From contig CAWHCF010000010.1 of the NCBI GenBank assembly GCA_963827655.1, positions 160,001-224,000 on the forward strand: a stretch of 64,000 bases of DNA, read 5' to 3'. The position numbers were made by a program, and so were the translations under genes. Positions 3,426 to 59,475 of this stretch are shown in pieces; within the stretch, counting starts at the first letter, position 1, and the number at the start of each line of letters is the position of its first letter. The DNA is from an uncultured Acidobacteriota bacterium. GTDB taxonomy: Bacteria > Acidobacteriota > UBA6911. The notes beneath the pieces are model-generated. The model worked only from the letters and a program-made list of their open reading frames with translations. It made no database searches and was not told the DNA's origin.

Positions 3426-4745
3426 CTAGCTGAATGAATTAATTATCTTGTTAACGGCAGAGTGGATCTCGGGGTCTTTCTTCTTCAGGTATTCGATTCT
3501 GCGGATTGAATGAAGCACGGTCGTGTGGTGCTTTCCGCCGAAGTCCTTGCCGATCTGGGGCAGAGACAACGCGGTGACCTGCTTGCACACATACATCGCA
3601 ATCTGGCGAGGCTGCGCAATACGGCGGGAGTTGTTCCTGGATTTCAGCACAGCCGGTTTGAGGCCGAAATGGTTGGATACCGAGCGGATGACCATTTCGG
3701 ACGAGATCGCGCGTTTTTCGTCGATGACGATCCCTCGGAGGACTTCGCGCGCATAGTCGATGTCGATATCGGTCGAGTCGATTCCGTCAAGGGAAGCCCG
3801 AGCGATGAGACGCTTGAGCGCACCCTCCAGTTCACGGATGTTCGAGCGGATGCTGCTCGCAATATAGACAGCTACGCCATCCGGGAGAGAAAGCAATTCC
3901 AGGTCAGCCTTCTTTTTCAGAATGGCGATTTTGGTTTCCAGATCGGGAGGCTGAATGTCAGCAATCAGTCCCCATTCGAATCGTGAGTGCAGCCGCTCCT
4001 CGAGAGTTGGAATCTCTTTGGGAGGGCAATCGCTCGTGATTACGATCTGCTTCTGCGCGTCATAAAGAGCATTGAAGGTGTGGAAGAACTCTTCCTGGGT
4101 TCTTTCCTTGCCGGCAATGAACTGAATGTCATCCATGAGCAGCACGTCGATGTTGCGGTATTTCTGACGGAACTGGTTGGTCCGGTCGTATCGAATGGAA
4201 TTAACCAGCTCGTTCATGAAGCTCTCTGACGACATGTAGCTCAGGCGCAGGGCACCATTCTTCTGCCAGATGGAGTGACCTATGGCGTGCATCAGGTGAG
4301 TCTTCCCCAGACCCACTCCGCCATAAACGTATAATGGGTTATAAGCCTTCGAGGGTTGGTCTGCCACTGCGAGAGCCGCGGCCCGCGCGAATTGATTGCT
4401 GGAGCCGACTACGAACGAATTAAACGTGTACTTAGGGTTCAACCCGCGGGGCGGAATCGTCGGCCGCTGCGGGTTCGACAGGGGTTCGCGGGATTCTCCA
4501 CCGCCCGATGCTGGTTCGACCGAGACTTTGACCTGCAGCGTTCCATGTCCTGCCTCACGAACGGCGTCGCGCAAGACATTGGAGTAGTTCTCGAGGAACA
4601 GTTTCTTGAAATTTTCGTTTGGAACCGTGAGGTGAACGGCGCTCTCATCACAACCGTCAAAGACAACAGGGCGAAACCAGGTGTCAAAGCATTGCTGGTT
4701 GACGCGCTTTCCAACCTTTGACAAAACCTGAGCCCACACATCCAT
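3426..4745 (-). CDS. dnaA: Chromosomal replication initiator DnaA
   Basis: YNPLYVYGGVGLGKTHLMHA, DDIQF, TQEEFFHTFN, RLHSRFEWG, NIRELEGAL, HTTVLH; start ATG 4745 (MDVWAQ) preferred because the longer ORF start runs through DnaA boxes. Confidence 0.99.
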   Translation of the reverse strand: MDVWAQVLSKVGKRVNQQCFDTWFRPVVFDGCDESAVHLTVPNENFKKLFLENYSNVLRDAVREAGHGTLQVKVSVEPASGGGESREPLSNPQRPTIPPRGLNPKYTFNSFVVGSSNQFARAAALAVADQPSKAYNPLYVYGGVGLGKTHLMHAIGHSIWQKNGALRLSYMSSESFMNELVNSIRYDRTNQFRQKYRNIDVLLMDDIQFIAGKERTQEEFFHTFNALYDAQKQIVITSDCPPKEIPTLEERLHSRFEWGLIADIQPPDLETKIAILKKKADLELLSLPDGVAVYIASSIRSNIRELEGALKRLIARASLDGIDSTDIDIDYAREVLRGIVIDEKRAISSEMVIRSVSNHFGLKPAVLKSRNNSRRIAQPRQIAMYVCKQVTALSLPQIGKDFGGKHHTTVLHSIRRIEYLKKKDPEIHSAVNKIINSFS

Positions 4746-4821
4746 TATCGGCCCCATGCTCAGGAACAAGTGGTTGAGGGGAAGAAAGATAGAACGACAG
4801 GTTGCGAGCGACTTGCTTGAG

Positions 4822-4853
4822 TTTTCCACAGTTATTTTCACAGCTGTGGAAAA
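4822..4853. promoter_or_regulatory. DnaA-box cluster upstream of dnaA (autoregulation or second oriC half)
   Basis: TTTTCCACA, ATTTTCACA and TGTGGAAAA within 32 bp. Confidence 0.75.
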
Positions 4854-5569
4854 CACCAATCCGCTGAACAGCGGCATACCGCTGCTCCCTCGATCGTCTC
4901 AAGATCGGCGGATATCGTTTTGCGGACCGTCGTAAGGCGCGAAGCATTCAACTCAACAACGCGCGTGAAAGTAACACAGGGTTTTTACACATTTCAAGAA
5001 AAAAAGTGAAAAAAGTTTTAAGATGCGCGATGCTTTGAAAGCCAGCGCCCCATGCGGGTTTCAGCCGATCATCGCTCTGAACCCACCGCCGTTATTGGGC
5101 AAAAACGCTTAGCAAAAAAATCATAAAAAATTCTTGGTTCGGGGAAGGAGCCTAGTCTTCGGCATCTGGTGTCACGGAGGTTTCCGATCGGCACGGGAGC
5201 AACACACTCTTGATCTCCTGACGGCGGCAAGATTCCGGGTGTTTCCACTGGACTTCAACTATCCTGCACCAGGCAGTAAGCAAACCACTATCTATTCTAT
5301 GTCAGAAAGATACGCGCTATGGTCGGTCGCTGGCGCACTACCGGTCCTGGAAAAGATCGGCGCGGGGGCATGGGGTCGTCTACGGGCGCGTGACACTCGC
5401 TCGACCACGCGGCCCGCGCGGGGGACGACCGGGAAGGTTGGCTGCGCCTGGATCCGCATCTGGCGAGCATCCGGAATCACCCTCGGTTCCAGCAGATGCT
5501 GGCCTCCATGGAGTACAGCGCCAGCCTCGAGAGCCGCGAGCTTCCCGATCGTCCTTGGTGAGCGTGTGG

Positions 5570-7574: not shown

Positions 7575-9369
7575 TTACTCCGGCTCTCCTTTCTTGAGGC
7601 GTGAGATCTCCCGAAGCTGGTCGCCGAGGCGCTCGCCCATCGAGGTGCTGCCTGAATCTGCCGAGGCCATGTACGAGGTGAATTCCAGCCTTGGTTCGTC
7701 TTCCTTCATCGCTTTGAGGCTGAGTCCAATCTTCTTTTCCGGGAGGTTCAGCTTGATGATCTTCATATCCACCTCCTGGCCTATGTTAAGGAACTCCGCC
7801 GGCTTCTCCACGTGTTTCTCGTCCAGCTCGGACACGTGGCACAGTCCTTCGATCCCTTCCTCGAGCTCGACGAATGCGCCGAAGTTTGTCATGCGCACAA
7901 CTCTTCCTTTAATCACGTCGCCCGGGTTGTGCCGGTTAAACCAGTCTTCCCATCGATCAGGCTCGAGCTGTTTGATTCCCAATGAGAGTTTCTGATTCGG
8001 GGCATCCACACTCAACACCACCGCCTGCACCTCGTCCCCTTTCTTCAGCATTTCCGAGGGGTGTTTGATCCGCTTGGTCCAGGACATGTCCGAAACATGC
8101 ACCAGGCCGTCGATACCCTCCTCTACTTCGATGAAGACCCCGAAATCAGTAACGTTTCGCACTTTGCCTGTTATCACGGTACCGGGTGCGATACTTCGAC
8201 TCGATGATGTCCCATGGATTTGGTTCGGTCTGCTTCAGGCCGAGCGAGATTCGGCGGGCTTCGGTATCGATGTCGAGCACCACGACTTCAACCGGGCTGC
8301 CGACAGAAACGATCTTTGACGGGTGTTTCACCCTCTTGTTCCACGTCATCTCGGAGATGTGAATCAATCCCTCGATGCCGGGTTCCAGTTCGACGAAGGC
8401 TCCGTAGTCGGTCAGGCTCACGACTTTGCCCTGAACCCGGATGTTCTTGGGATAGCGCATGTCGGCGTGAAGCCACGGATCTTCCGTAAGCTGCTTGTAG
8501 CCCAGGGAGACGCGGCCATCCTCGCGGTTGAACTTGATGACCTTGACTTTGACCTTATCCCCGACCGCGAAGATCTCTGATGGATGATTGACTCGTCCCC
8601 AGGACATATCCGTTATATGGAGCAAGCCATCGACGCCCCCCAGGTCAATGAACGCGCCGTAGTCGGTTATGTTCTTGACAATCCCTTCCATGACCTTCCC
8701 GTCTTCCAGGACCTCCATGGTCTTGGCTTTCTCTTCCTGCATCGCCTCTTCAAGGACTGCCTTCCGGGACAGAACGATGTTACCGCGCTTCTTGTTTACC
8801 TTGATGACGCGCATCTCGAACTCTTCGCCGCGGAGGCTATCGAGATTCCGTACCGGGCGCAGATCAATTTGGGATCCCGGGAGAAAAGCCCGCACGCCGA
8901 TGTCGACAGCCAACCCGCCCTTGATCCGTTCAATGACTCGTCCTTTCACGACAGTTCCGTCGCGGTAGGCTTTCTCAATTTCGTCCCAGATCTTCATCCT
9001 CTCGGCTTTTTCGCGCGACAACACCACGTAGCCGCTGGAGTCTTCGGTCTGCTCGAGAAAAACATCGACCACATCGCCGACCTTGATCGAGTGGCGGCCG
9101 CGGTCATCCAGAAACTGCTCGAGCGGGATGATGCCTTCGGATTTGAAGCCGACATCGACAACGACCCCGCTGCCTGAGAAGGCGATGATCTTTCCTTTGA
9201 CTACCTCTCCCTCGGAAAAACGCTGGGTTCGTCCTTCATAGGCGGCCAGCAGAGTCTTGAAGTCGTTTTCGGCCTCCTGGTCGGCGGTGACGGGCGCATC
9301 GACGGGTTGCGTGTCGCCGGGCGAAGTCGCGCTCCCTGCCAGTTGCGGATTGTTTACATCAGATGCCAT
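7575..9369 (-). CDS. rpsA: 30S ribosomal protein S1, split by a frameshift near 8190
   Basis: Successive S1 repeats (VDVGFKSEG, AFLPGSQID, DGLLHITDMSW, EGLIHISEM, DGLVHVSDMSW, EGLCHVSEL) across two overlapping ORFs; AGGAGG before ATG 9369. Confidence 0.97.
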
Positions 9370-9558
9370 TCCTGCCTCCTGACGTCCCACGGACAGAAAC
9401 TTACGGCGTTCCAATCGCGGGATTCTTTGTATTCAATTAAGAATAAGCCTAATGCGTGATCGGACCTGAAGAGGAAATTACGTGCGGCGTCGCAGTATTC
9501 CAGTTGAAGCAAATCCAAAGGTCAACATTCCTTAGATCACTAGAAATAACAGCCCTTC

Positions 9559-9640: not shown

Positions 9641-9683
9641 GCGCTGCGAAAGGAATACTACCAGGACGCAAAGACACCAAGAA
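9641..9683. repeat. Half copy of the 8-nt-period REP-like element
   Basis: GCGCTGCGAAAGGAATACTACCAGGACGCAAAGACACCAAGAA matches the loop and right arm of the copies at 55687 and 62706. Confidence 0.7.
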
Positions 9684-9694
9684 GCGCGGGCCTG

Positions 9695-12600
9695 TCAATA
9701 AAGGGGCCCTGGGTCACCCTGGCAAATGAACGCTCCCCAGTAGAGCGGATCCGGATCCTCGTCCTTGAGCGCGAGTTGCGCATCGCGCAACGCATCGGCT
9801 CGCGGCTGGCCCGCCAGCATGCGGCGATAAAAGTCAGTCATGAGCTTTTGAGTCTGCTGGTCCGGTACTTTCCAGAGACTCATCACGAGGGTCTTGGCTC
9901 CCGCCAGCACGAAGGCTCTGCGCAATCCGAAGACGCCCTCGCCCGTCTTGATCTCGCCCAGCCCGGTCTCGCACGCCGACAGGGTGACGAGCTCGGTCGC
10001 CTGCAAATCCATTCCCGAAACATCCTCGGCGTTCAGGAGCGCGTCTTCGGCTTCGCCCGGCAGATCGCCGCGCTCGATCCATGTGTTTGCGCCGGCCAGC
10101 GCCAGGCCGGATCGCAGCAACGGACTCTCGATGCCCAGCGCGGCGAGACGATTGAATGCAAGACCGAATCCGGCCGCTCCGAGATCGCGCGCGCCTTGCG
10201 GGCGGCCGCCCGGCTGGTCAGACAGGAAGAATCCGTGGGTCGCGAGGTGGAGAATGCGCGGCGAACGACAGGATTTGACCCTGGACTCGAGCGCAATCGA
10301 ATCGAGCAGCGGCTTCACGCGCAGCATTTCGGCGATCCGTTCGCCTTCGATTCTGGTTCCCGGCAGACGTTTGAAATGGAGGTTCCCCCGATCGAGGTCG
10401 CGCGAAAGTCTCATGGGGGAGTCCTCGAGCGATCTGGTCGCGGCGCTCGCCGGCGCCGTCAAATCAAAATCGGGATCGGCGATGACCATGGGGTCGCCGG
10501 CCTGCCCCTTGACCGAGTTTCCGAATCGCATCACGTCGCGGCCCGTACTGAGATAACTGATGTGGTAATCGTCAATCAGCCGGCGTCCATCGCCAAGCTC
10601 CAGAACCTCGAACGGAAGGCGCGAGAGTTCGCCTTCGGGCGCGAGCAAAAGCTGCCGGCAATCGCCCAGCACCGGCAGAAGCGGGTCGAAGACGGCACGG
10701 CGCAGCGCGACGCCGCAATCCGATGTCGATTCGACCGGCGCTCGAGGCGGTGCCGCCCCAAGGTCTCTGCCGCTCCCGCCTCCGATCTCGCCGGTGAGCT
10801 GGGCGCGAAAACAGCCGACCAGGCGATCGATCTCATCGGCGTCGCCGAGGTTGATCATCCGCAGATCGTGCGGTCGTGAGGCAGGCAGCACAAAGGCGGC
10901 ATAGCGCGCCTTCACGAACAGCTCGTCCGCCAGGGCCTGCGGATTGTCGAAATCAAAATCGAAGAAATGGACGAACTCGATCAGGGCCGAGCCGGCCGGG
11001 AGAGCCGCGGCCACCTTCGTCAGATCGACCTCGCGCATCTTCTGTCCCAGCCCGACCTCGGGAATCTGGAGCGCCAGTTGCCGTTCCAAAGCTTCTCGGC
11101 GCGCCTTCAGCTCGCGCAGCGCCCGAAGGTGAACCTCGAGGCCGTCGCTCCCCGGACCTGAGAGCGTCATCTGCGAGATGCTTTGCCGCACCGAGGCCAG
11201 CTCGCGCAAGTGAGGTTCGAGGTGGGGATACTTTCCGCTGAGCACCGAATCGCGCTGGGCGGCCAGAGCCTCCGCGCCAATCCCTTTGCGCTTGAGCACG
11301 AGGTTCATCGCCGCCTGGACCGCCGGGGGGCTGCCGATCAGATGCTGCGAAACCAGGGAAATCGAGCAGAGGAACCTCGACTGGATGTGCCGGACATAAC
11401 CCATCCGCTGGCTTTCGGAGGCGAGCGAGAAGAATTCGTGAATGGATTGGTCCGTGATGGATTCAATCTGTACCATCAGCTCCCGGGCTTCTTCATAGCG
11501 CTTGGTCGCGGCGCACACAAGCAGCAGATTGCTGAGCACGGCGGCCCGCAGCGGATGCTCTTCTCCCACCAGCGCGCGATACGCCTCCGCCGCCTGGCGC
11601 AGTGCCATCTCGGCGATTTCGTAGTTGCCCAGCCGCAACAACAGCAGACCGAAACCGTTGAGGATGCTGGTGTGTTCGGGAACCGGACTCTCTTGCGCCA
11701 GGCCGATGGCCTGCTCGAAGAGCGCAAGAGCGTCATCGTACTTTTCGCGATGCGTGTATATGGTCGCCAGGTTGCCCAGGGCGGTGATGTAGTACGGTCC
11801 CCGTTCGCCCTCAACATCACGGAAGGCCGCCACGGCTCGTTTGGCGTAATGCTCGGCTTGCTCAAGCTCGAGGGTATCTATGTAGAGCTTCGCCAGGGCG
11901 TTCAAGGTTGTGGCTTTGTGCATGACCATGACGCCGGTCGCATCTTCCAGTATCTGGAGCGCCCCGAGGAAAGCCGTTTCGGCCGGCCGGTAGTCTCCAA
12001 CGTTGTGATAGAGATCTCCCAGATAGAAAAGATCCACTGCGTAGAGCCAGTGGTTTTCTCCCAGCTTCGAGCCGTGAATCCTCATCGCCTGCTGCGCGAG
12101 CGGGATCCCGGTCTTGTATTGGCCCAGGTTCCGGTAATGAATGGCCAGATTGTTAAGGCTGATCGCGAAGTCCTCGTGGTCTTCGCCGAGCACTTTGCGT
12201 CGAATCTCGATGGATTCGAACAGGCATTGTTCAGCAGACTTGAAAGCCCCGGTCCGCCCGTAGACAGTTGCCATGAGGTTGAGCGTCTGGGCATATTCCG
12301 CAGTCTCGACGCCCGCCGTTTCGCGCTGGAATTCCAGCACTCGCCTTAGAAGTTGCTCGGCTTCGTCGTACCTCCCAAGCGCCAGGGAGCTCGTGGCCAG
12401 AAGACTCAGGGTGTTGAAGTAAATGGGATGGTTCTCCCCCAGGACACGGCTTGCAAGCTCGCGCAATCGCTCCGCTCGCGGCCGGGCGTCAGCCATTTTG
12501 CCGACGTTCATCTGGAACCCGACAACGACATTCAGCAGCTCCACGTATTCGGCAGTCTCTTCCCCCCCGGCTCGCTGCTTGATCTCGAGTGTCCGTTCGA

Positions 12601-13211
12601 GCCATGGCAGCGCTTCGTGGTGTCTGCCCGCTTCCGCGTAATACCAGGCCAGCGTTTCGACCAGCTGGCCGTAAACCGGATGGTCTTCTCCGAGGTGTTT
12701 GCGGTTCGGTTCTACAGCCTGCAGAAGGAGGGGCTCCGCCTCTTCGTGGCGGCCCTGCTGCGAATAGATCAACCCGAGGGTAGCCAGATTATCGGCGTAT
12801 TGCGGGCTATCCTCGCCCAGCGCAGACGGAATCAACTCGCGCAGGGCTTCATACCACGGCAGGGCCGATTCCATTCTTCCCGTCTTCAGGTAGAGCATGG
12901 CCAGATTGGTCATGGCGGCAACGGACGAAGGATGCTGCTTGCCCGTGGTGTCGGTGTAGCAAGCGATCGCGCCCAGGTATAACTTCTCGGCATCCTCGTG
13001 GCTTCCCTGCGCCGCGTAAAGAAAGGCGAGGTTGTTCATGCTATCGCCGGTTGAAGAACCCTCCATCCCGAGGTTTTGAGAGGCCAAGGCGAATGCGAGC
13101 CTGGCGCGGGTCAGCGCTTCCTCGGTTTGCCCTTGCTGGATGAGTTCGATAACGGCTCTTGTTGAGAGTGTCAATGGTGTCGGGCGTGATCTCTGAATCC
13201 TCTTCCGGCAT
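9695..13211 (-). CDS. TPR-repeat + CHAT-domain caspase-like (clan CD) protease
   Basis: About 13 kinesin-light-chain-type ~42-aa TPRs (SLNNLA/LGEDHP), a coiled coil, then CHAT with an intact His-Cys dyad (ILHLATHGFF, LVTLSACETG), GLRRAF..AGA, SLWKV.D and YWGAF; probable true start ATG 13211 (AGAAAGGA RBS, MPEEDSEITPDTIDTLNK) joined by a one-base frameshift near 13157. Confidence 0.93.
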
Positions 13212-13272
13212 TTTAAGGGGTCCTTTCTGGAAATGATCCCATCGCGTGATTGGTCGGAAGCGCGCCAGGCCG

Positions 13273-14277
13273 TCACATCACATCGAAGTAAGTGGACAGT
13301 GCCATCCACTGATTGGCCTCCATTCCGTGAAGCCGCGCGAGTAATTCGTCAATGTCCGTTCGAGAAAGAACCCGGGCAGGAACCCGCGGATTCAGCGGCA
13401 TCCAGTCGAGCCCCAGCGGATGATCGGTGAGGACGGCCAGGAGATGCTCGCGTCCCGGCTTGCCCGTCACCACAAACGATTGGTAAGTGGATCCCGGCCG
13501 AGGCAAATAGCTGCGGCCGGCCTTGAATCGGGTGTCGGGCGCAAACCACGACGGACAGAGACAATAGATCTGGCCGCTCGTGCCCTCGTTCAGAAGCAGG
13601 AGGTCGCCTTCGCGTTCTGATTCAATGGCCAGACAGACGCGGTCGCCCGGGCGGAAGCCATGTTGCGCTTCCTCCTGCGGAGCGCCCAGGTCGCGCAGTA
13701 TGGGACGCGCGGCGCCGCGGCTTGCCGCCCCTGCGGGAACCGGCCAGATGCGGTCGGTGAATCTCGCAATCGATCTCAGGCCTTCGATCCCGTGCGCCAG
13801 GGGTTGCGGTTGAGCAACCGGCTTTGTGCCGGCGAGGTCAACCCTGGTTCGGCAATCGACGCCGGCGAGCTCGAGCGATTGCAGGACCTGAGGCAGCCAC
13901 TGCTCGGCGGCGCGATCGATGACTTCGATCCATTGCCAGCCTTCCAGCCAGTACTCGATCTGTTCGGGAAGGTTGATCGGGTCCAGCAGAATCGGCAGGT
14001 ACGGACGCTCGTACTTCCAGGCAAGCTGAATCTCCTGTTTGACGTTGCGTGAGCGCATCGAAGCGTCAGTCGTCATGAGCATCAGCACCTTGCAGTTCTT
14101 GATACCGCGAACGATTTCGGGGCCGTAGTTGAGACCTCCGGCAATCTTGTTGCGATCAAGCCAAAGCTTCACGCCGGCCTCTTCCAGCTGACCGGCGATT
14201 CTGATCACCCGTTCGCGGTCGCGGCTGGAGTAGCTTATGAAGACTTCGGCGTCATCGACTGAGACGGGTTGCTTCAT
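13273..14277 (-). CDS. TIR-domain protein with C-terminal DUF4384-like beta-sandwich domain
   Basis: VFISYSSRD..LWLDR..I..G..EI..GI..SRNVKQEI (TIR_2, catalytic-position Glu present); C-terminus F.PGDRV.L.IES..G.L.LL..GTSG.IY.L.P..LP..GKPGRE.L.AV typical of DUF4384. Confidence 0.85.
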   Translation of the reverse strand: MKQPVSVDDAEVFISYSSRDRERVIRIAGQLEEAGVKLWLDRNKIAGGLNYGPEIVRGIKNCKVLMLMTTDASMRSRNVKQEIQLAWKYERPYLPILLDPINLPEQIEYWLEGWQWIEVIDRAAEQWLPQVLQSLELAGVDCRTRVDLAGTKPVAQPQPLAHGIEGLRSIARFTDRIWPVPAGAASRGAARPILRDLGAPQEEAQHGFRPGDRVCLAIESEREGDLLLLNEGTSGQIYCLCPSWFAPDTRFKAGRSYLPRPGSTYQSFVVTGKPGREHLLAVLTDHPLGLDWMPLNPRVPARVLSRTDIDELLARLHGMEANQWMALSTYFDVM

Positions 14278-14324
14278 GGCTCAACGGGAATCAATAGAAC
14301 CGAATCGTAAAAGCAATCAAAGTG

Positions 14325-14414
14325 TCTTGGTGTTTCTTCGTGACTTGGTGTCTTTGTGGTTAGAGCTGTCAAACAAATACCACGAAGACTCAAAGACACG
14401 AAGAAACACCAGGA
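14325..14414. repeat. Full palindromic REP-like element built from 8-nt CACGAAGA-type units
   Basis: TCTTGGTGTTTCTTCGTGACTTGGTGTCTTTGTGGT-loop-ACCACGAAGACTCAAAGACACGAAGAAACACCAGGA imperfect inverted repeat. Confidence 0.85.
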
Positions 14415-14427
14415 ATCGTGCGCCAGC

Positions 14428-15934
14428 TCATAGCCGGTGAAGCCATTCGCGCAGTGCAGGGTAAAGCTCCCGATAGAGTGGAAATCGTTTAGCGTAGAAG
14501 CGGGACCGCCTGGGATTCGGCCGGTAGGTGCGTTCGATCCGCGAGATCCTCAAAGCTGCCTCGCGCGCATTGGGGTAGACCCCAATGGCCGTACCCGCAA
14601 GAATCGCGGCCCCGAGGCACACCGCTTCCGGGACGCGCATCGCCGAGACGGGTTTGCCGAGCAGGTCGGCCTTGAGCTGCATCCAGAACGCAGACTTGGC
14701 GCCGCCTCCGGTTGCGCGAAAGGCGCTGATCGAAGCTCCGCACTCGCGCAGCACCTGGACGTTGAGCGCCATCTCATAGGTGATCCCCTCCAGGATGGCG
14801 CGAATGATTTCCCCCTTGGTGGTAGAGAGTCTCAGACCTGCCAGGACGCCTTTCGATTGGGTATCAAAGTGAGGCGTGCCGGTCGAGGTGAAATGAGGAA
14901 GCAGCAGGAGGTCCGTCGGCTCTTTTGCCGCCTGGGCGATCAGCAGGGCGTAGACGTCCCGGCCGGTTTCCCGGGCGCGCGCCGTCTCTTCCGCTCCCAA
15001 AACGTCGCGGTACCACCGGAGCAGCGAGCCCCCCGAGAAATTGAACGTGAGCGCCACGTAGAGGCCCGTGACGACATGGGGGTAACAAGCGATGTTGTTC
15101 TCGAGAAGTTGCGGATGAATGACGCGCGTTCCAAGCGCCGGCGTGATGCATTCTACGGTGCCGGTCGCGTACAAGCCGACGTTGGGCTCCGACCACTCCC
15201 GCGCCGAGCGCGCCACACGGCTGGTCGTGGCCACCGGTGACGATCGCGACGCCGCGCGGGAGGCCGAAGGACCGCGCCGCCTTCGATCCAAGCTCTCCGA
15301 TTGCGGTCCCCGGGGGGTAGACGCGAGCCAGGCGTTCCGGGGCGATTCCCGCGATATTCAGCATCTTCGGGGACCAGTCGACGTGATCGACGTCCAGGAG
15401 CATTGTCCGGGAAGCCAGGGAGGAATCGATGGCGGGCTCGAGGCCTAGCCGGTAAAAGAGAAGATCCGAGTAGCACAGGAAGTAATGCGCCTTGCGGAAA
15501 ACGTCGCGCCGCTCTTTCTTCCACCACAGAATCTTGCTGGCGGTGTACATGCCGTGGAGCGGCATCCCGGTAATTTCGAAAATTTGCTGGCGCGGGATCC
15601 GCTCCTCCCACCACGCCACCCATGGAGCCGTGCGGGCATCGAACGTCACGATGGCGTTGTGCAGGAATTGGCCGTTGCGGCCGACGGGCGTAACGGCCTC
15701 GCCTTGGGCCGCGACGGAGAGCGCGCGAATCGGATCCTTTCGAGTCGCTGCCGCAACCTCGCGGATAACCTCGCGTGCCGCCCTCATGACACGGGCGCTA
15801 TCGAGTTCGATCCAGCCCGGGCGAGGAAAATGAAGCGGGTACTCCCGGTAGGCCGACGCCAGAATCCGGCCCTCTTCGTCGAAGGCGACTGCTTTGCAGC
15901 CCGTGGTGCCGATGTCGATTCCAAGTAGACTCAT
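14428..15934 (-). CDS. FGGY-family carbohydrate kinase (xylulokinase-like), frameshifted near 15190
   Basis: LLGIDIGTTGCK, GGHDQPCGALGAG, then ATGTVEC, G.LLRWYRD, RAILEG, GGGAKS.FW.Q..AD in the second frame. Confidence 0.92.
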
Positions 15935-39409: not shown

Positions 39410-40906
39410 CTACATGGCCTCAGTGTCAATCTGCGCCCTTTGCAACTTGCCGCTGTAATCAATGTAGATGGACTTCCATTCTGAGAAGGTATCCAGGGCT
39501 GCCTGCCCGGCTTCGCGATGGCCATTCCCAGTCTGTTTGGTGCCCCCGAAGGGAAGATGAACCTCCGCTCCAATGGTGGAAGCGTTGACATAGAAGATGC
39601 CGGTATTCATGTCTCGCATGGCCTGGAACGCGGCGTTGATATTCTGAGTGTAGATGGCGGACGACAGCCCGTAAACGACGCCGTTGCCGATCTCGATCGC
39701 GCTTTCAAGATCGTCGCAGGGAATAACTGAGACGACCGGGCCAAAGATTTCCTCCTGGGCAATTCGCATTCTGGGATCCACGTCGGCGAAGATCGTGGGC
39801 TCGTGGAAGAAACCCTTGGCATATTCCCCGTCGGAGAGTCGGCGGCCGCCGCAGACCAGCCTGGCGCCTTCATCTCGGCCGATCCTGACATATTCTTCGA
39901 CGGTCCGGAGTTGATTGTCACTGATCATCGGCCCCATTTCCGTCGAGGGATCCAAGCCATTCCCCACGCGAAGGGCTTTGGCGCGGCAAGAGAACTTTTC
40001 GAGGAATTCCGGATAGACGGTCTTGTGCACGACCACACGGCTTGCGGCCGTGCATCGCTGGCCGGAGGTTCCGAATCCTCCCCAGACGGCCCCATCTACG
40101 GCCAGGTCGAGCCTGGCATCATCCATCACGATGATGACGTTCTTGCCGCCCATTTCCAGGTGATGATGCTTGAAAGAGGGGGCGCATTCCCGGGCAACCT
40201 CGTGCCCCACTTCCGTGGAACCGGTGAATGAGACCAGCTTCACCTCCTTGTGGCGGATCAGGGGCAGACCGACCGCAGTCCCTGCACCTGTAACCAGGTT
40301 GACGACGCCGCGCGGAACTCCGGCGTCTTCGAGAACCTTGACCAGGTTGAGGGCGGAGTGAGGCGTGTCCGTGGCCGGCTTGATCACCGCGGTATTTCCG
40401 CAAACCAACGCGGGCATTATTTTCCACGACGGTATCGCCATGGGAAAATTCCACGGCGTTATCAGTCCGCACACTCCCACAGGCATTCGCATGGACATGG
40501 CGAACTTGTTCCTCAGCTCCGATGGGACGGTCTGTCCGAATTGCCGTCGACCCTCGCCCGCCATGTAGTAGCTCATATCGATGGCTTCCTGAGCATCGCC
40601 TCTGGTTTCAGTCAGGATTTTACCCATCTCTTGCGTCATCTGGCGCGCAAACTCTTCCTTGTGGCGCACGAGCATTTCGGCGGCGCGAAAGACGATCTCC
40701 GCGCGTCCTGGCGCCGGCACCAGGCTCCACGATTTGAGCGCGCGGGCGGCGGCGTCCACGGCCCTGTCGATATCCTCGGGTCCTGATCGCGGGAACAGCC
40801 CGAGCACCTGCTGGTGAAGCGCGGGATTCCGATTTTCATACGTGGCGCCGGAAGCGGCTGGCACCCACTCTCCGTCAATGAAGTTCTGGAAAACTGGCGT
40901 ACTCAT
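39410..40906 (-). CDS. NAD-dependent aldehyde dehydrogenase
   Basis: ITPWNFP, SFTGST, LEMGGKN, GQRCTA, EEIFGPV, PFGG.K. Confidence 0.95.
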
Positions 40907-40911
40907 GATGT

Positions 40912-41022
40912 CGATTTACGATTGACGATTTACGATTGACGATTGACGATTGTACGAACGACATGAGGTCATGCTTTCCATTCTTGTACAATCGTCAATC
41001 GTAAATCGTCAATCGTCAATCG
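40912..41022. repeat. Inverted heptamer tandem repeat (CGATTGA/CGATTTA ... TCAATCG)
   Basis: Arms 40912-40955 and 40986-41022 form a near-perfect ~37-bp stem filling the intergenic gap. Confidence 0.9.
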
Positions 41023-59222: not shown

Positions 59223-59475
59223 CGATTTACGATTTACGATTGACGATTGCGAGCTTGGCGGCAGCTGGTCAATCGTCATTCTAATCGGTAGAGTCCGGAC
59301 AAGCGCCGGAAACTCCCGCCAATCTTTCGTCCGAGCCCGCAGAATTACGATCGACGATTGACGATTGCAGCTTGCCGGTGGTTGTTCAATCGTGTGCCGC
59401 AAGATATCCCTTCCATCTCAGTCCGCAAACCTCGTAAATACCGTCAAATCGTAACGTCAATCGTCAATCGTCAAT
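59222..59475. repeat. Heptamer (CGATTGA/TCAATCG) inverted repeat cluster between convergent genes
   Basis: ACGATTTACGATTTACGATTGACGATTG at 59222, ATTACGATCGACGATTGACGATTG at ~59344, CGTCAATCGTCAATCGTCAAT at ~59455. Confidence 0.8.

Follow-up and report, generated by a model that had tools for sequence, protein, structure and literature searches.

What might a TIR-domain protein and a TPR-CHAT protease do for one another when their genes lie side by side in a soil bacterium? The question is raised by a 64-kb stretch of DNA from an uncultured Acidobacteriota bacterium (contig CAWHCF010000010.1, positions 160,001 to 224,000; hereafter the window, numbered from its first letter), in which two co-oriented genes are the sole occupants of the interval between rpsA, recognised by its S1 domains, and an FGGY sugar kinase gene. 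Gene 1 encodes a TIR_2-DUF4384 protein and gene 2 a TPR-CHAT protein (Table 1). As set out below, comparative sequence analysis indicates that the two form a real, conserved two-gene module whose function is uncharacterised, and we propose that the product of gene 2 could act upon that of gene 1.

Domain architecture of the two proteins

The product of gene 1 joins an N-terminal TIR_2 domain (Pfam, E 4.9e-21, 75.9 bits against a cut-off of 28) to a DUF4384 domain (E 3.2e-11, 43.6 bits against a cut-off of 27). Residue E82, within an 'NVKQE' stretch, is kept without exception in all 40 aligned gene-1 homologues, and alignments to PDB sequences pair it with the glutamates of C. elegans TIR-1 and Cat1 that we take to be catalytic in those enzymes. 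Given the invariance of E82, the gene-1 TIR domain is probably itself an enzyme. An AlphaFold2 model of the protein (predicted local distance difference test, pLDDT, 83.4) matched TIR structures, e.g. SARM1 and AbTir (best PDB E-value 1.1e-6), and a gene-1 profile compared with PDB sequences retrieved TIR chains only, with no match to the C-terminal part of the protein (hereafter the cassette). The nearest TIR-only relatives are the N-terminal TIR domains of NB-ARC or AAA_16 proteins that also carry TPRs, with an NTPase domain in 8 of the 10 tested. The N-terminal TIR domain of such signal transduction ATPases with numerous domains (STAND NTPases) occupies the effector position.

The longest open reading frame (ORF) of gene 2 contains TPRs of the kinesin-light-chain type, matched by TPR_12 in eight stretches (276.2 bits) and by TPR_10 in nine over approximately residues 51-631, which by an arithmetic estimate amounts to about 13-14 repeats of 42 residues. 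The array is followed by a CHAT domain (E 2.6e-69, 234.3 bits against a cut-off of 24), the His and Cys of which are unvarying in 13 of 13 partner CHAT proteins. A profile of the partner proteins likewise found kinesin light chain TPRs in the PDB (E 5e-24). The TPR-CHAT homologues measure 659-1694 amino acids (aa) in total and differ from one another in the length of the array. As judged by eye, neither protein begins with a hydrophobic stretch.

A preliminary description of this locus, read from the letters of the DNA, had proposed the same arrangement, namely two co-oriented genes between rpsA and a sugar kinase, a TIR domain with a glutamate at the catalytic position together with a DUF4384-like domain, a partner with about 13 TPRs and an intact CHAT His/Cys dyad, and no signal peptide on either protein. 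The ORFs, the S1, FGGY and other Pfam matches, the aligned residues and the two N-termini all agree with it. We note that the same genome has 12 TIR matches including gene 1; three of them fall within 3 kb of one another on contig C7 (75290-78133) and are 32-34% identical to the gene-1 TIR domain, and others lie on contigs C45, C46 and C50, among others.

Conservation of the gene pair

A search of 40 genomes from the same family or class yielded no full-length gene-1 homologue; apart from matches in the genome studied here, the best one (E 3.2e-10) covers the TIR domain only. A large protein collection contained 334 relatives at E <= 0.001, of which the best 120 are 51-96% identical to gene 1 over nearly its full length; all but one of these 120 possess both Pfam families. 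The source labels of the listed relatives include Acidobacteriota, Gemmatimonadota, Armatimonadetes, Anaerolineales, Thermodesulfobacteriota and a Methyloprofundus. We then collected the loci that encode such homologues, 11 from species genomes and 79 from metagenomes, and scanned them with a CHAT profile built from seven CHAT domains. Setting aside 29 partial-match and 6 exact-duplicate loci left a non-redundant set of 55 in which the gene-1 homologue is full-length; these derive from soil, sediment and similar metagenomes and from metagenome-assembled genomes of complex-lifestyle phyla.

A CHAT gene is present in 24 of the 55 loci. It lies on the same strand within 150 bp of gene 1 either downstream (8 loci) or upstream (5 loci), on the opposite strand in a convergent arrangement within 600 bp (2 loci), or on the same strand 0.7-5.6 kb away (9 loci). 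In addition, 2 loci end in a partial CHAT gene and 8 have an adjacent TPR gene that runs off the contig. Among the 15 loci with about 4 kb of sequence on both sides, a CHAT gene was found in 10 and a partial one in 2. The recurrence of the pair, for which the preliminary description had suggested a survey, is evident, and it can be set against a background of six CHAT matches in the 8.18-Mb genome studied here, which corresponds by arithmetic estimate to a chance of about 1.5% per random 20-kb stretch. The spacers between gene 1 and gene 2 in homologous loci are short and carry ribosome-binding-like sites. Furthermore, 12 gene-1 homologues and 12 TPR-CHAT homologues share a source contig size, an indirect sign that they stem from the same contig.

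The CHAT gene accompanies the DUF4384 cassette

The idea that the pair works alone is borne out only in part: in 9 of the 55 loci, one or two further conserved genes part the CHAT gene from gene 1. In a second operon type, represented by five loci (Table 1), proteins of about 165 aa and about 1230-1270 aa are encoded in the interval that separates the CHAT gene from gene 1; the smaller was seen in L022 and L023. Neither Pfam nor PADLOC matched the 165-aa and 1267-aa proteins of L022 or the 1230-aa protein of L047, and the 1252-aa protein of L024 has only a weak TPR_19 match. In a third type, a Ser/Thr kinase domain is fused to the N-terminus of gene 1. The kinase-TIR-DUF4384 loci L019, L024 and L085 (the last placed here by ORF length only) all have a CHAT gene, and L019 has a 185-aa ORF ahead of the fusion. 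Genes for Pkinase-(TIR)-DUF4384 proteins can also be directly preceded by an extracytoplasmic function (ECF) sigma factor gene, as in three loci listed in Table 1. Directly upstream of TIR-DUF4384 in two unrelated loci we observed a gene for an AAA and RyR-domain protein (L016, 1636-4632; L043, 7314-8990), a possible further accessory component.

The C-terminal part of gene 1 also occurs behind other heads. A profile search of 1.84 billion representative sequences returned 778 proteins at E <= 1e-30, and among the best 150 of these 32 cover both domains and many align just with profile positions of about 150-335, a region made up of the linker, DUF4384 and the C-terminal end. The heads of ten tail-only or mixed proteins comprised Pkinase (4), Pkinase-TIR (1), PNP_UDP_1 (1) and Trans_reg_C (1), with nothing recognised in the remaining 3. 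A 1304-aa CHAT protein is encoded 2.7 kb downstream of the TIR-less Pkinase-DUF4384 gene of L095, and a TPR-CHAT protein 1.8 kb downstream of that of L104, with a second CHAT gene further on. Beside the unknown head plus DUF4384 of L100 lies a TPR gene truncated where the contig stops, and the flank of L102 is too short to judge the presence of CHAT. The gene neighbourhoods indicate that CHAT goes with the DUF4384 tail and not with the TIR head.

The cassette is well conserved (58% mean column identity in 56 sequences) and, when modelled alone, is predicted with a pLDDT of 89.9 and a predicted template modelling score of 0.87 to form a beta-sandwich followed by a C-terminal helix and strand. 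Foldseek found no match to this fold in the PDB at E <= 1e-3. A wide VIA-align search placed macroglobulin (MG) domains of complement C5, C4 and C3 and of alpha-2-macroglobulin at the top (Z 7.4-7.1, about 2 Å over about 85 residues), the best being an MG domain of C5 (Z 7.4, root-mean-square deviation 1.8 Å over 86 residues); Z-scores below 8 may mean only a common beta-sandwich. No chain named Csx30 was among the matches listed by either structure search. Fusions of CHAT to the cassette or to this TIR domain were absent from the 120 longer proteins listed and from the 10 TIR-only relatives. In the search that gave the longer proteins, about 220 cassette-bearing sequences reached E <= 1e-10.

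DUF4384 has been described, in the parts of the sources available, as often fused to protease domains, as a component of cyanobacterial orthocaspases and as present in one bacterial kinase family. The genome studied here also encodes, on contig C22 (L105, 5146-15054), three DUF4384 proteins of 240, 249 and 245 aa, the last of which overlaps by 4 nt the gene for a 719-aa Peptidase_C14-PEGA-TPR protein. These DUF4384 proteins and the peptidase have hydrophobic N-termini and are without the linker motif described below; this module is probably an extracytoplasmic cousin of the pair.

A motif shared by both proteins

Between the TIR domain and DUF4384, gene 1 contains the motif R195-D-L-G-A199, in which R195, L197 and G198 are unvarying in 40 of 40 sequences. 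In the AlphaFold2 model it falls in a coil assigned by DSSP to residues 189-206, with a disordered stretch (149-160) ahead of it and the beta-sandwich behind. Of 120 gene-1 homologues, 113 contain R-[DG]-L-G-A, whereas shuffled sequences give an expectation of 0.0025 per protein, and a loose form of the motif stands just before DUF4384 in 13 of 15 cassette proteins with other heads. The same motif recurs in gene 2, where the two copies (Table 1) sit at two fixed positions of the protease, both in gap-rich parts of the alignment. In the first copy, all 13 partner CHAT proteins keep the Arg and nearly all keep the Gly; the second begins, in homologues, 20 residues past the first His of the H-x-A-T-H-G catalytic motif. 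Overall, 38 of 120 TPR-CHAT homologues contain the motif, 18 of them twice, compared with 0.015 per protein expected.

The strict motif was found in 9 of 12 CHAT proteins that share a source contig size with a gene-1 homologue and in 29 of 108 others, a difference that is only suggestive of co-inheritance. On this pattern of sequence conservation, the linker motif may be a recognition or cleavage site, and the copies in gene 2 may be self-processing or pseudo-substrate stretches. It could equally be a peptide bound by TPRs of the kinesin-light-chain type.

Relation to known systems

The suggestion that the system is undescribed is in agreement with searches of PADLOC and NCBIfam, in which no model of a named system was significant and both proteins gave weak, generic TIR and TPR matches. 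The best Thoeris match in NCBIfam was to the type III model ThcB4 (21.8 bits against a cut-off of 220), and ThsB matches in PADLOC were no better than E 1.7e-5 and confined to the TIR core (PADLOC 2.0.0, of 2023, predates type IV Thoeris). Gene 2 had no Thoeris match in either collection. No description of a TIR-DUF4384 and TPR-CHAT pair was found in the literature searched, as far as its available texts extend; subscription journals lie outside this coverage, and the supplementary tables of 10.64898/2025.12.03.692087 could name the pair. That preprint presents 29 putative Thoeris types, and the word 'CHAT' is absent from its main text as available; the same is true of the available main text of PMC7159879.

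The closest parallel is the type III-E Craspase, in which the TPR-CHAT protease Csx29 cuts Csx30 and to which Csx31 also belongs. Like Craspase, the module places a protease with TPRs and a CHAT domain beside a two-part partner with a flexible linker, and the C-terminal DUF4384 of gene 1 follows a disordered or coil linker. According to the accessible part of the source, one group of Csx30 C-terminal domains is likewise DUF4384, and the Csx30 complex includes a sigma factor, a point of resemblance to the ECF sigma factor beside kinase-head relatives of gene 1. Unlike Craspase, which is encoded with Cas7-11 (gRAMP) and a CRISPR array, the module has no CRISPR-like array within the 64-kb window and no cas gene among ten flanking proteins. 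Its protease would need a trigger other than an RNA-guided complex; its head, moreover, is a TIR enzyme and not the N-terminal domain of Csx30. When the profile of the 13 partner CHAT proteins was compared with PDB sequences, a single CHAT chain was matched (8rot_B, E 2.6e-4) and none named Csx29.

Bacterial gasdermin operons offer a second parallel: there, a caspase-like or CHAT protease with a repeat-type sensor frees the adjacent killer protein by removing its inhibitory C-terminal part. A similar release of a neighbouring effector is proposed here. The effector, however, would be a TIR domain and not a pore former, the part removed would be a folded cassette of 175 residues, and the interval from rpsA to the kinase is free of gasdermin genes, of which the preliminary description had seen none in the window. 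A CHAT protease that specifically processes its partner as a switch, again only proposed in our case, is also known from the type III-B SAVED-CHAT protease and its PCaspase substrate; as far as that system is described in the text available, it responds to cA3 through SAVED and cuts a protease, whereas here the TPRs would respond and the substrate would be a TIR protein. The TIR domain of gene 1 is nearest to those at the N-termini of TIR-STAND (NLR-like) proteins, yet neither gene has a Pfam match to an NTPase family, and control would come from proteolysis and not from nucleotide-driven oligomerisation.

Finally, type IV Thoeris, by the partial account at hand, also pairs two genes, one for a TIR protein and one for a clan-CD (caspase-like) protease. 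There the TIR protein signals to the protease, whereas our evidence favours a protease that acts on the TIR protein. As far as described, the type IV TIR protein is without DUF4384 and its effector has a C-terminal ligand-binding domain, while in gene 2 the CHAT domain is C-terminal and follows the TPRs.

The reading frame of gene 2

The start of gene 2 differs from that of its closest homologues. P0121 and P0122, with 92% and 88% identity across the C-terminal 574 residues, start at the ATG equivalent to position 13211, but in the window the frame from this ATG ends after 56 codons. DNA alignment to locus L026, the gene 1 of which is 96% identical, reveals one extra base near 13155 in the window, which shifts the frame between this ATG and the main gene-2 ORF. 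Contigs of the rhizosphere run X4 likewise omit one base, at 13154 or 13156. The long ORF is open upstream to in-frame GTG codons at 13276 and 13309; a start at GTG 13276, which would overlap the stop of gene 1 by 4 nt, was considered and dropped after comparison with close homologues. Between 13154 and 13257 the X4 contigs show deletions of 1, 1, 18, 1, 2 and 5 bases relative to the window, and this region, comprising the spacer between the two genes and the first gene-2 codons, differs between strains.

Two further genes nearby are broken in a similar way. On the minus strand, rpsA is split into overlapping ORFs (8146-9414, 422 aa, and 7575-8177, 200 aa), and the FGGY kinase into 14864-15934 (FGGY_N) and an overlapping ORF in another frame (14428-15291), a second break within 8 kb. 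In 23 relatives rpsA is a single open frame of 485-659 aa, with one in-frame TGA in six. Because rpsA, intact in relatives, and the kinase are also split, the likeliest cause of the extra base in gene 2 is an assembly indel error, and a real mutation is also possible. That the module is decaying in this genome, with gene 2 a pseudogene and the pair without current function, would account for the early stop of the homologue-type frame and for the absence of the extra base from L026 and from the X4 contigs. We nevertheless regard decay as very unlikely, given that indel errors more simply explain breaks that extend to an essential gene such as rpsA, that the remaining >1150 codons of gene 2 are intact with all conserved residues present, and that upstream in-frame GTG starts are available.

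A proposed proteolytic switch and its alternatives

How, then, might the two proteins work together? We give an even chance to a cytoplasmic proteolytic switch in which the TIR effector with its tail is to the protease what Csx30 is to Csx29. Gene 2 would be a caspase-like CHAT protease with its long, variable TPR array as the regulatory or sensing part, and gene 1 its dedicated partner, composed of a TIR head, a flexible linker and the highly conserved DUF4384 cassette. A trigger, whether infection or another stress, would act on the TPR array and render the protease active. The protease would then recognise the cassette and cut the linker at or next to R195-A199, so releasing the TIR head from the cassette, and the freed TIR domain would self-associate and degrade nicotinamide adenine dinucleotide (NAD+), leading to growth arrest or cell death. 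The R-D-L-G-A copies of the protease would serve in self-processing or as pseudo-substrates. What the sequences show directly is the domain content, the catalytic residues, the conserved pairing, the link of CHAT to the cassette and the common motif; the binding, the cleavage and its site, an NADase activity, the trigger and an outcome in defence or cell death are inferred.

The earlier proposal that the protease processes the TIR protein accordingly fits the comparative data, in the linkage of CHAT to the tail, the shared motif and the DUF4384 of Csx30 in the part of the literature available, and it is the direction of action that we favour. Action of the protease on the TIR protein is favoured because CHAT follows the tail whatever the head; because some of these heads make no nucleotide signal; because the tail is very conserved while the TPR part of the protease varies in length; because a motif is common to both proteins; because the nearest TIR-only relatives occupy the effector position of STAND proteins; and because some Csx30 substrates, by the accessible account, end in DUF4384. 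A conserved cassette facing proteases of 659-1694 aa fits an arrangement of 'constant handle, variable sensor'.

Several observations weigh against this reading. The context of the window is one of housekeeping genes with no defence island, and PADLOC gave no convincing match among 10 neighbours in related loci; in viral contigs, 10 stretches fitted the search pattern and none was confirmed as a relative. No CHAT gene was found in 21 of the 55 loci (18 of them short-flanked), nor in 3 of the 15 well-flanked loci (L034, L065 and L068). In its place, L034 has genes for a 2107-aa DUF4062-AAA_16-WD40 protein and a NUDIX protein, and in L065 gene 1 is separated from a truncated TPR gene by a serine recombinase; in L057, also without CHAT, a 761-aa TPR gene is cut by the contig end. 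The strict motif is absent from 82 of 120 TPR-CHAT and 7 of 120 gene-1 homologues, and partner P0231 has no copy (the presumed partner P0099 keeps one), so that the motif is not strictly co-inherited. Lastly, the window copy of gene 2 may be defective if its extra base is real.

The signal could run in the reverse direction, as in Thoeris, with the TIR-DUF4384 protein sensing a trigger through DUF4384 and making an NAD-derived signal that TPR-CHAT binds before cutting cellular proteins. Type IV Thoeris, in which a TIR protein is paired with a caspase-like protease activated by N7-cADPR (a cyclic ADP-ribose, cADPR), is a precedent for this, and a TPR domain has been proposed as the cADPR receptor of the type VIII effector ThsI, both according to sources available in part. 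The invariant E82, which makes the TIR domain probably an enzyme, and the ThsB-like models among the best, if weak, PADLOC and NCBIfam TIR matches point the same way. We nonetheless consider this direction unlikely. CHAT also accompanies TIR-less Pkinase-DUF4384 proteins, the cassette is fused to kinase and winged-helix heads that are unable to make a nucleotide signal, and its high conservation is unusual for a domain that senses invaders. In addition, the motif common to the gene-1 linker and the protease would be left unexplained, and the TIR domains most closely related to that of gene 1 occupy the effector position in STAND NTPases.

A different alternative keeps proteolysis and gives up immunity: the pair could belong to a stress or developmental pathway in which the TIR domain tunes NAD+ metabolism or makes a second messenger, without killing. 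The many relatives that are Ser/Thr kinases behind an ECF sigma factor resemble regulatory circuits and, by the partial account available, the sigma factor linked to Csx30. The housekeeping context of the window, the lack of defence-island signs and of phage carriage, and the origin of the 55 loci also suit such a role. It seems to us improbable in view of the patchy distribution of gene 1, which has no full-length homologue in 40 relatives of the same class and yet is 50-68% identical to proteins labelled as other phyla, as is typical of horizontally moving conflict genes. Genes for STAND-TIR, DUF4062-STAND and RHS proteins are neighbours in some loci, and TIR and PNP heads are typical effectors of conflict systems (PMC7159879, as far as its text is available).

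Genomic surroundings and environmental occurrence

The ten annotated flanking proteins include those of dnaA, an S49 peptidase, rpsA and sugar enzymes. The preliminary description had proposed a check for enrichment of the pair in defence islands; the neighbours here are housekeeping genes, and those in related loci, as noted above, gave no convincing defence match. The gene dnaA (3426-4877, minus strand) is about 5 kb from the module, and the window is therefore probably near the replication origin. Consistent with the earlier statement that CRISPR is missing from the window, no CRISPR-like spaced repeat array was found within its 64 kb, and no cas genes among the ten annotated flanking proteins, with no cas-specific hidden Markov model scan made of the whole genome. 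We did observe a 27-nt repeat of the GATT(T/G)ACGATT type in short tandem or paired copies at 40906-40946 and 59224-59368, 18 kb apart. Promoter and terminator scans gave counts at chance level.

The REP-like (repetitive extragenic palindrome-like) repeats said to bracket the module are real, although they are dispersed throughout the genome and do not mark its borders. They belong to a hairpin element of about 100 nt; of 793 first-look candidates, at least 40 were scored as copies, which are 85-95% identical, and the element is REP- or MITE-like (miniature inverted-repeat transposable element). Within the window the pattern was matched 9 times against 0.00 expected, with copies at 14318-14420, 9660, 19830, 26093, 33141, 36260, 54635 and 61389; in contigs of soil metagenomes the element has several hundred-fold depth and many loose ends. 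The genome-wide dispersal rules out these repeats as borders of a mobile island and, by the same token, they say nothing on the borders or the mobility of the pair. Synteny of rpsA and sppA is preserved in relatives. None of the kinase, gene 1 and gene 2 occurs at the rpsA loci of 23 relatives (1.5-kb flanks), so no clean insertion site is demonstrable.

Metagenomes of soil and rhizosphere contain near-identical DNA that covers the module at least in part (20 run rows, drawn from 18 studies). In the soil metatranscriptome X20, four contigs of 151 nt fall on the module, each with 2-4 differing letters, and one of them (13246-13391) crosses the junction of the two genes with under 31 of its letters on the side of gene 2. 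These contigs are a weak hint of expression, since such libraries can hold DNA, and stretches of the module that lack cover in runs X19 and X20 carry no weight.

Table 1. Coordinates of the module, its features and related operons; positions refer to the window or to the locus named.
Feature	Sequence	Position	Strand	Details
Gene 1	Window	13273-14277	minus	334 aa; TIR_2, linker, DUF4384, C-terminal helix/strand; ORF, Pfam
TIR_2 domain	Window	13915-14244	minus	Residues 12-121; Pfam
E82, candidate catalytic Glu of gene 1	Window	14032-14034	minus	Codon; alignment
Gene-1 C-terminal cassette	Window	13276-13800	minus	Residues 160-334; linker motif, DUF4384 beta-sandwich, C-terminal helix and strand
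DUF4384	Window	13417-13656	minus	Residues 208-287; Pfam match
Linker motif R195-D-L-G-A199 of gene 1	Window	13681-13695	minus	Proposed recognition or cleavage site
Gene 2, longest ORF	Window	9695-13309	minus	1204 aa; ORF, Pfam
Homologue-type start ATG of gene 2	Window	13211-13209	minus	AAAGGA ribosome-binding-like site ahead at 13226-13221
TPR array	Window	11417-13159	minus	Kinesin-light-chain-type TPR_12/TPR_10; Pfam
CHAT domain	Window	9713-10717	minus	Residues 865-1199; Pfam
CHAT His codon	Window	10235-10237	minus	
CHAT Cys codon	Window	9971-9973	minus	
R-D-L-G-A copy 1, gene 2	Window	10754-10768	minus	Gap-rich stretch, some 175 residues ahead of the catalytic His
R-D-L-G-A copy 2, gene 2	Window	10175-10189	minus	Between the catalytic His and Cys
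Extra base (about 13155) in gene 2	Window	13150-13160	minus	DNA alignment to L026
REP-like hairpin	Window	14325-14414		36-nt arms, 86% complementary; between kinase and gene 1
Half copy of REP-like repeat	Window	9643-9683		Just past the gene 2 stop codon
Second operon type	L022	9104-13436		
Second operon type	L023	9102-13449		
Second operon type	L047	5241-8933		
Second operon type	L050	4693-10268		
Second operon type	L024	9286-13044		
ECF sigma factor (PF07638 type)	L065	2700-3257		Directly before Pkinase-(TIR)-DUF4384
ECF sigma factor (PF07638 type)	L095	7135-7698		Directly before Pkinase-(TIR)-DUF4384
ECF sigma factor (PF07638 type)	L104	7116-7694		Directly before Pkinase-(TIR)-DUF4384

Implications

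Known ways of switching on bacterial TIR enzymes are ligand-driven filaments, Argonaute complexes or STAND oligomers. If the proposed switch is correct, proteolytic release would add another mode of activation, one that mirrors the protease-gated death effectors of animals. DUF4384 would at the same time gain a role open to testing, as the part of client proteins that faces the protease, together with a named candidate cleavage motif.

More tentatively, and with some doubt on our part, the R-[DG]-L-G-A linker, DUF4384 and the helix/strand of the cassette may constitute a general client handle for clan-CD proteases, both CHAT and caspase-like, within a large, CRISPR-independent family of switches of which Csx29-Csx30 is one recruited offshoot. 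If this were true, such proteases would release interchangeable heads, including TIR, PNP, Ser/Thr kinases with ECF sigma factors and winged-helix regulators, and proteolytic release would be a new way to turn on a bacterial TIR NADase. The Craspase switch already serves as a programmable protease tool. The present finding connects it with a far broader range of stand-alone modules of soil bacteria, which could supply new protease-substrate pairs with defined recognition sites. Should the module not be immune in function, it would still represent a widespread, uncharacterised pathway of regulatory proteolysis tied to ECF sigma factors and kinases.

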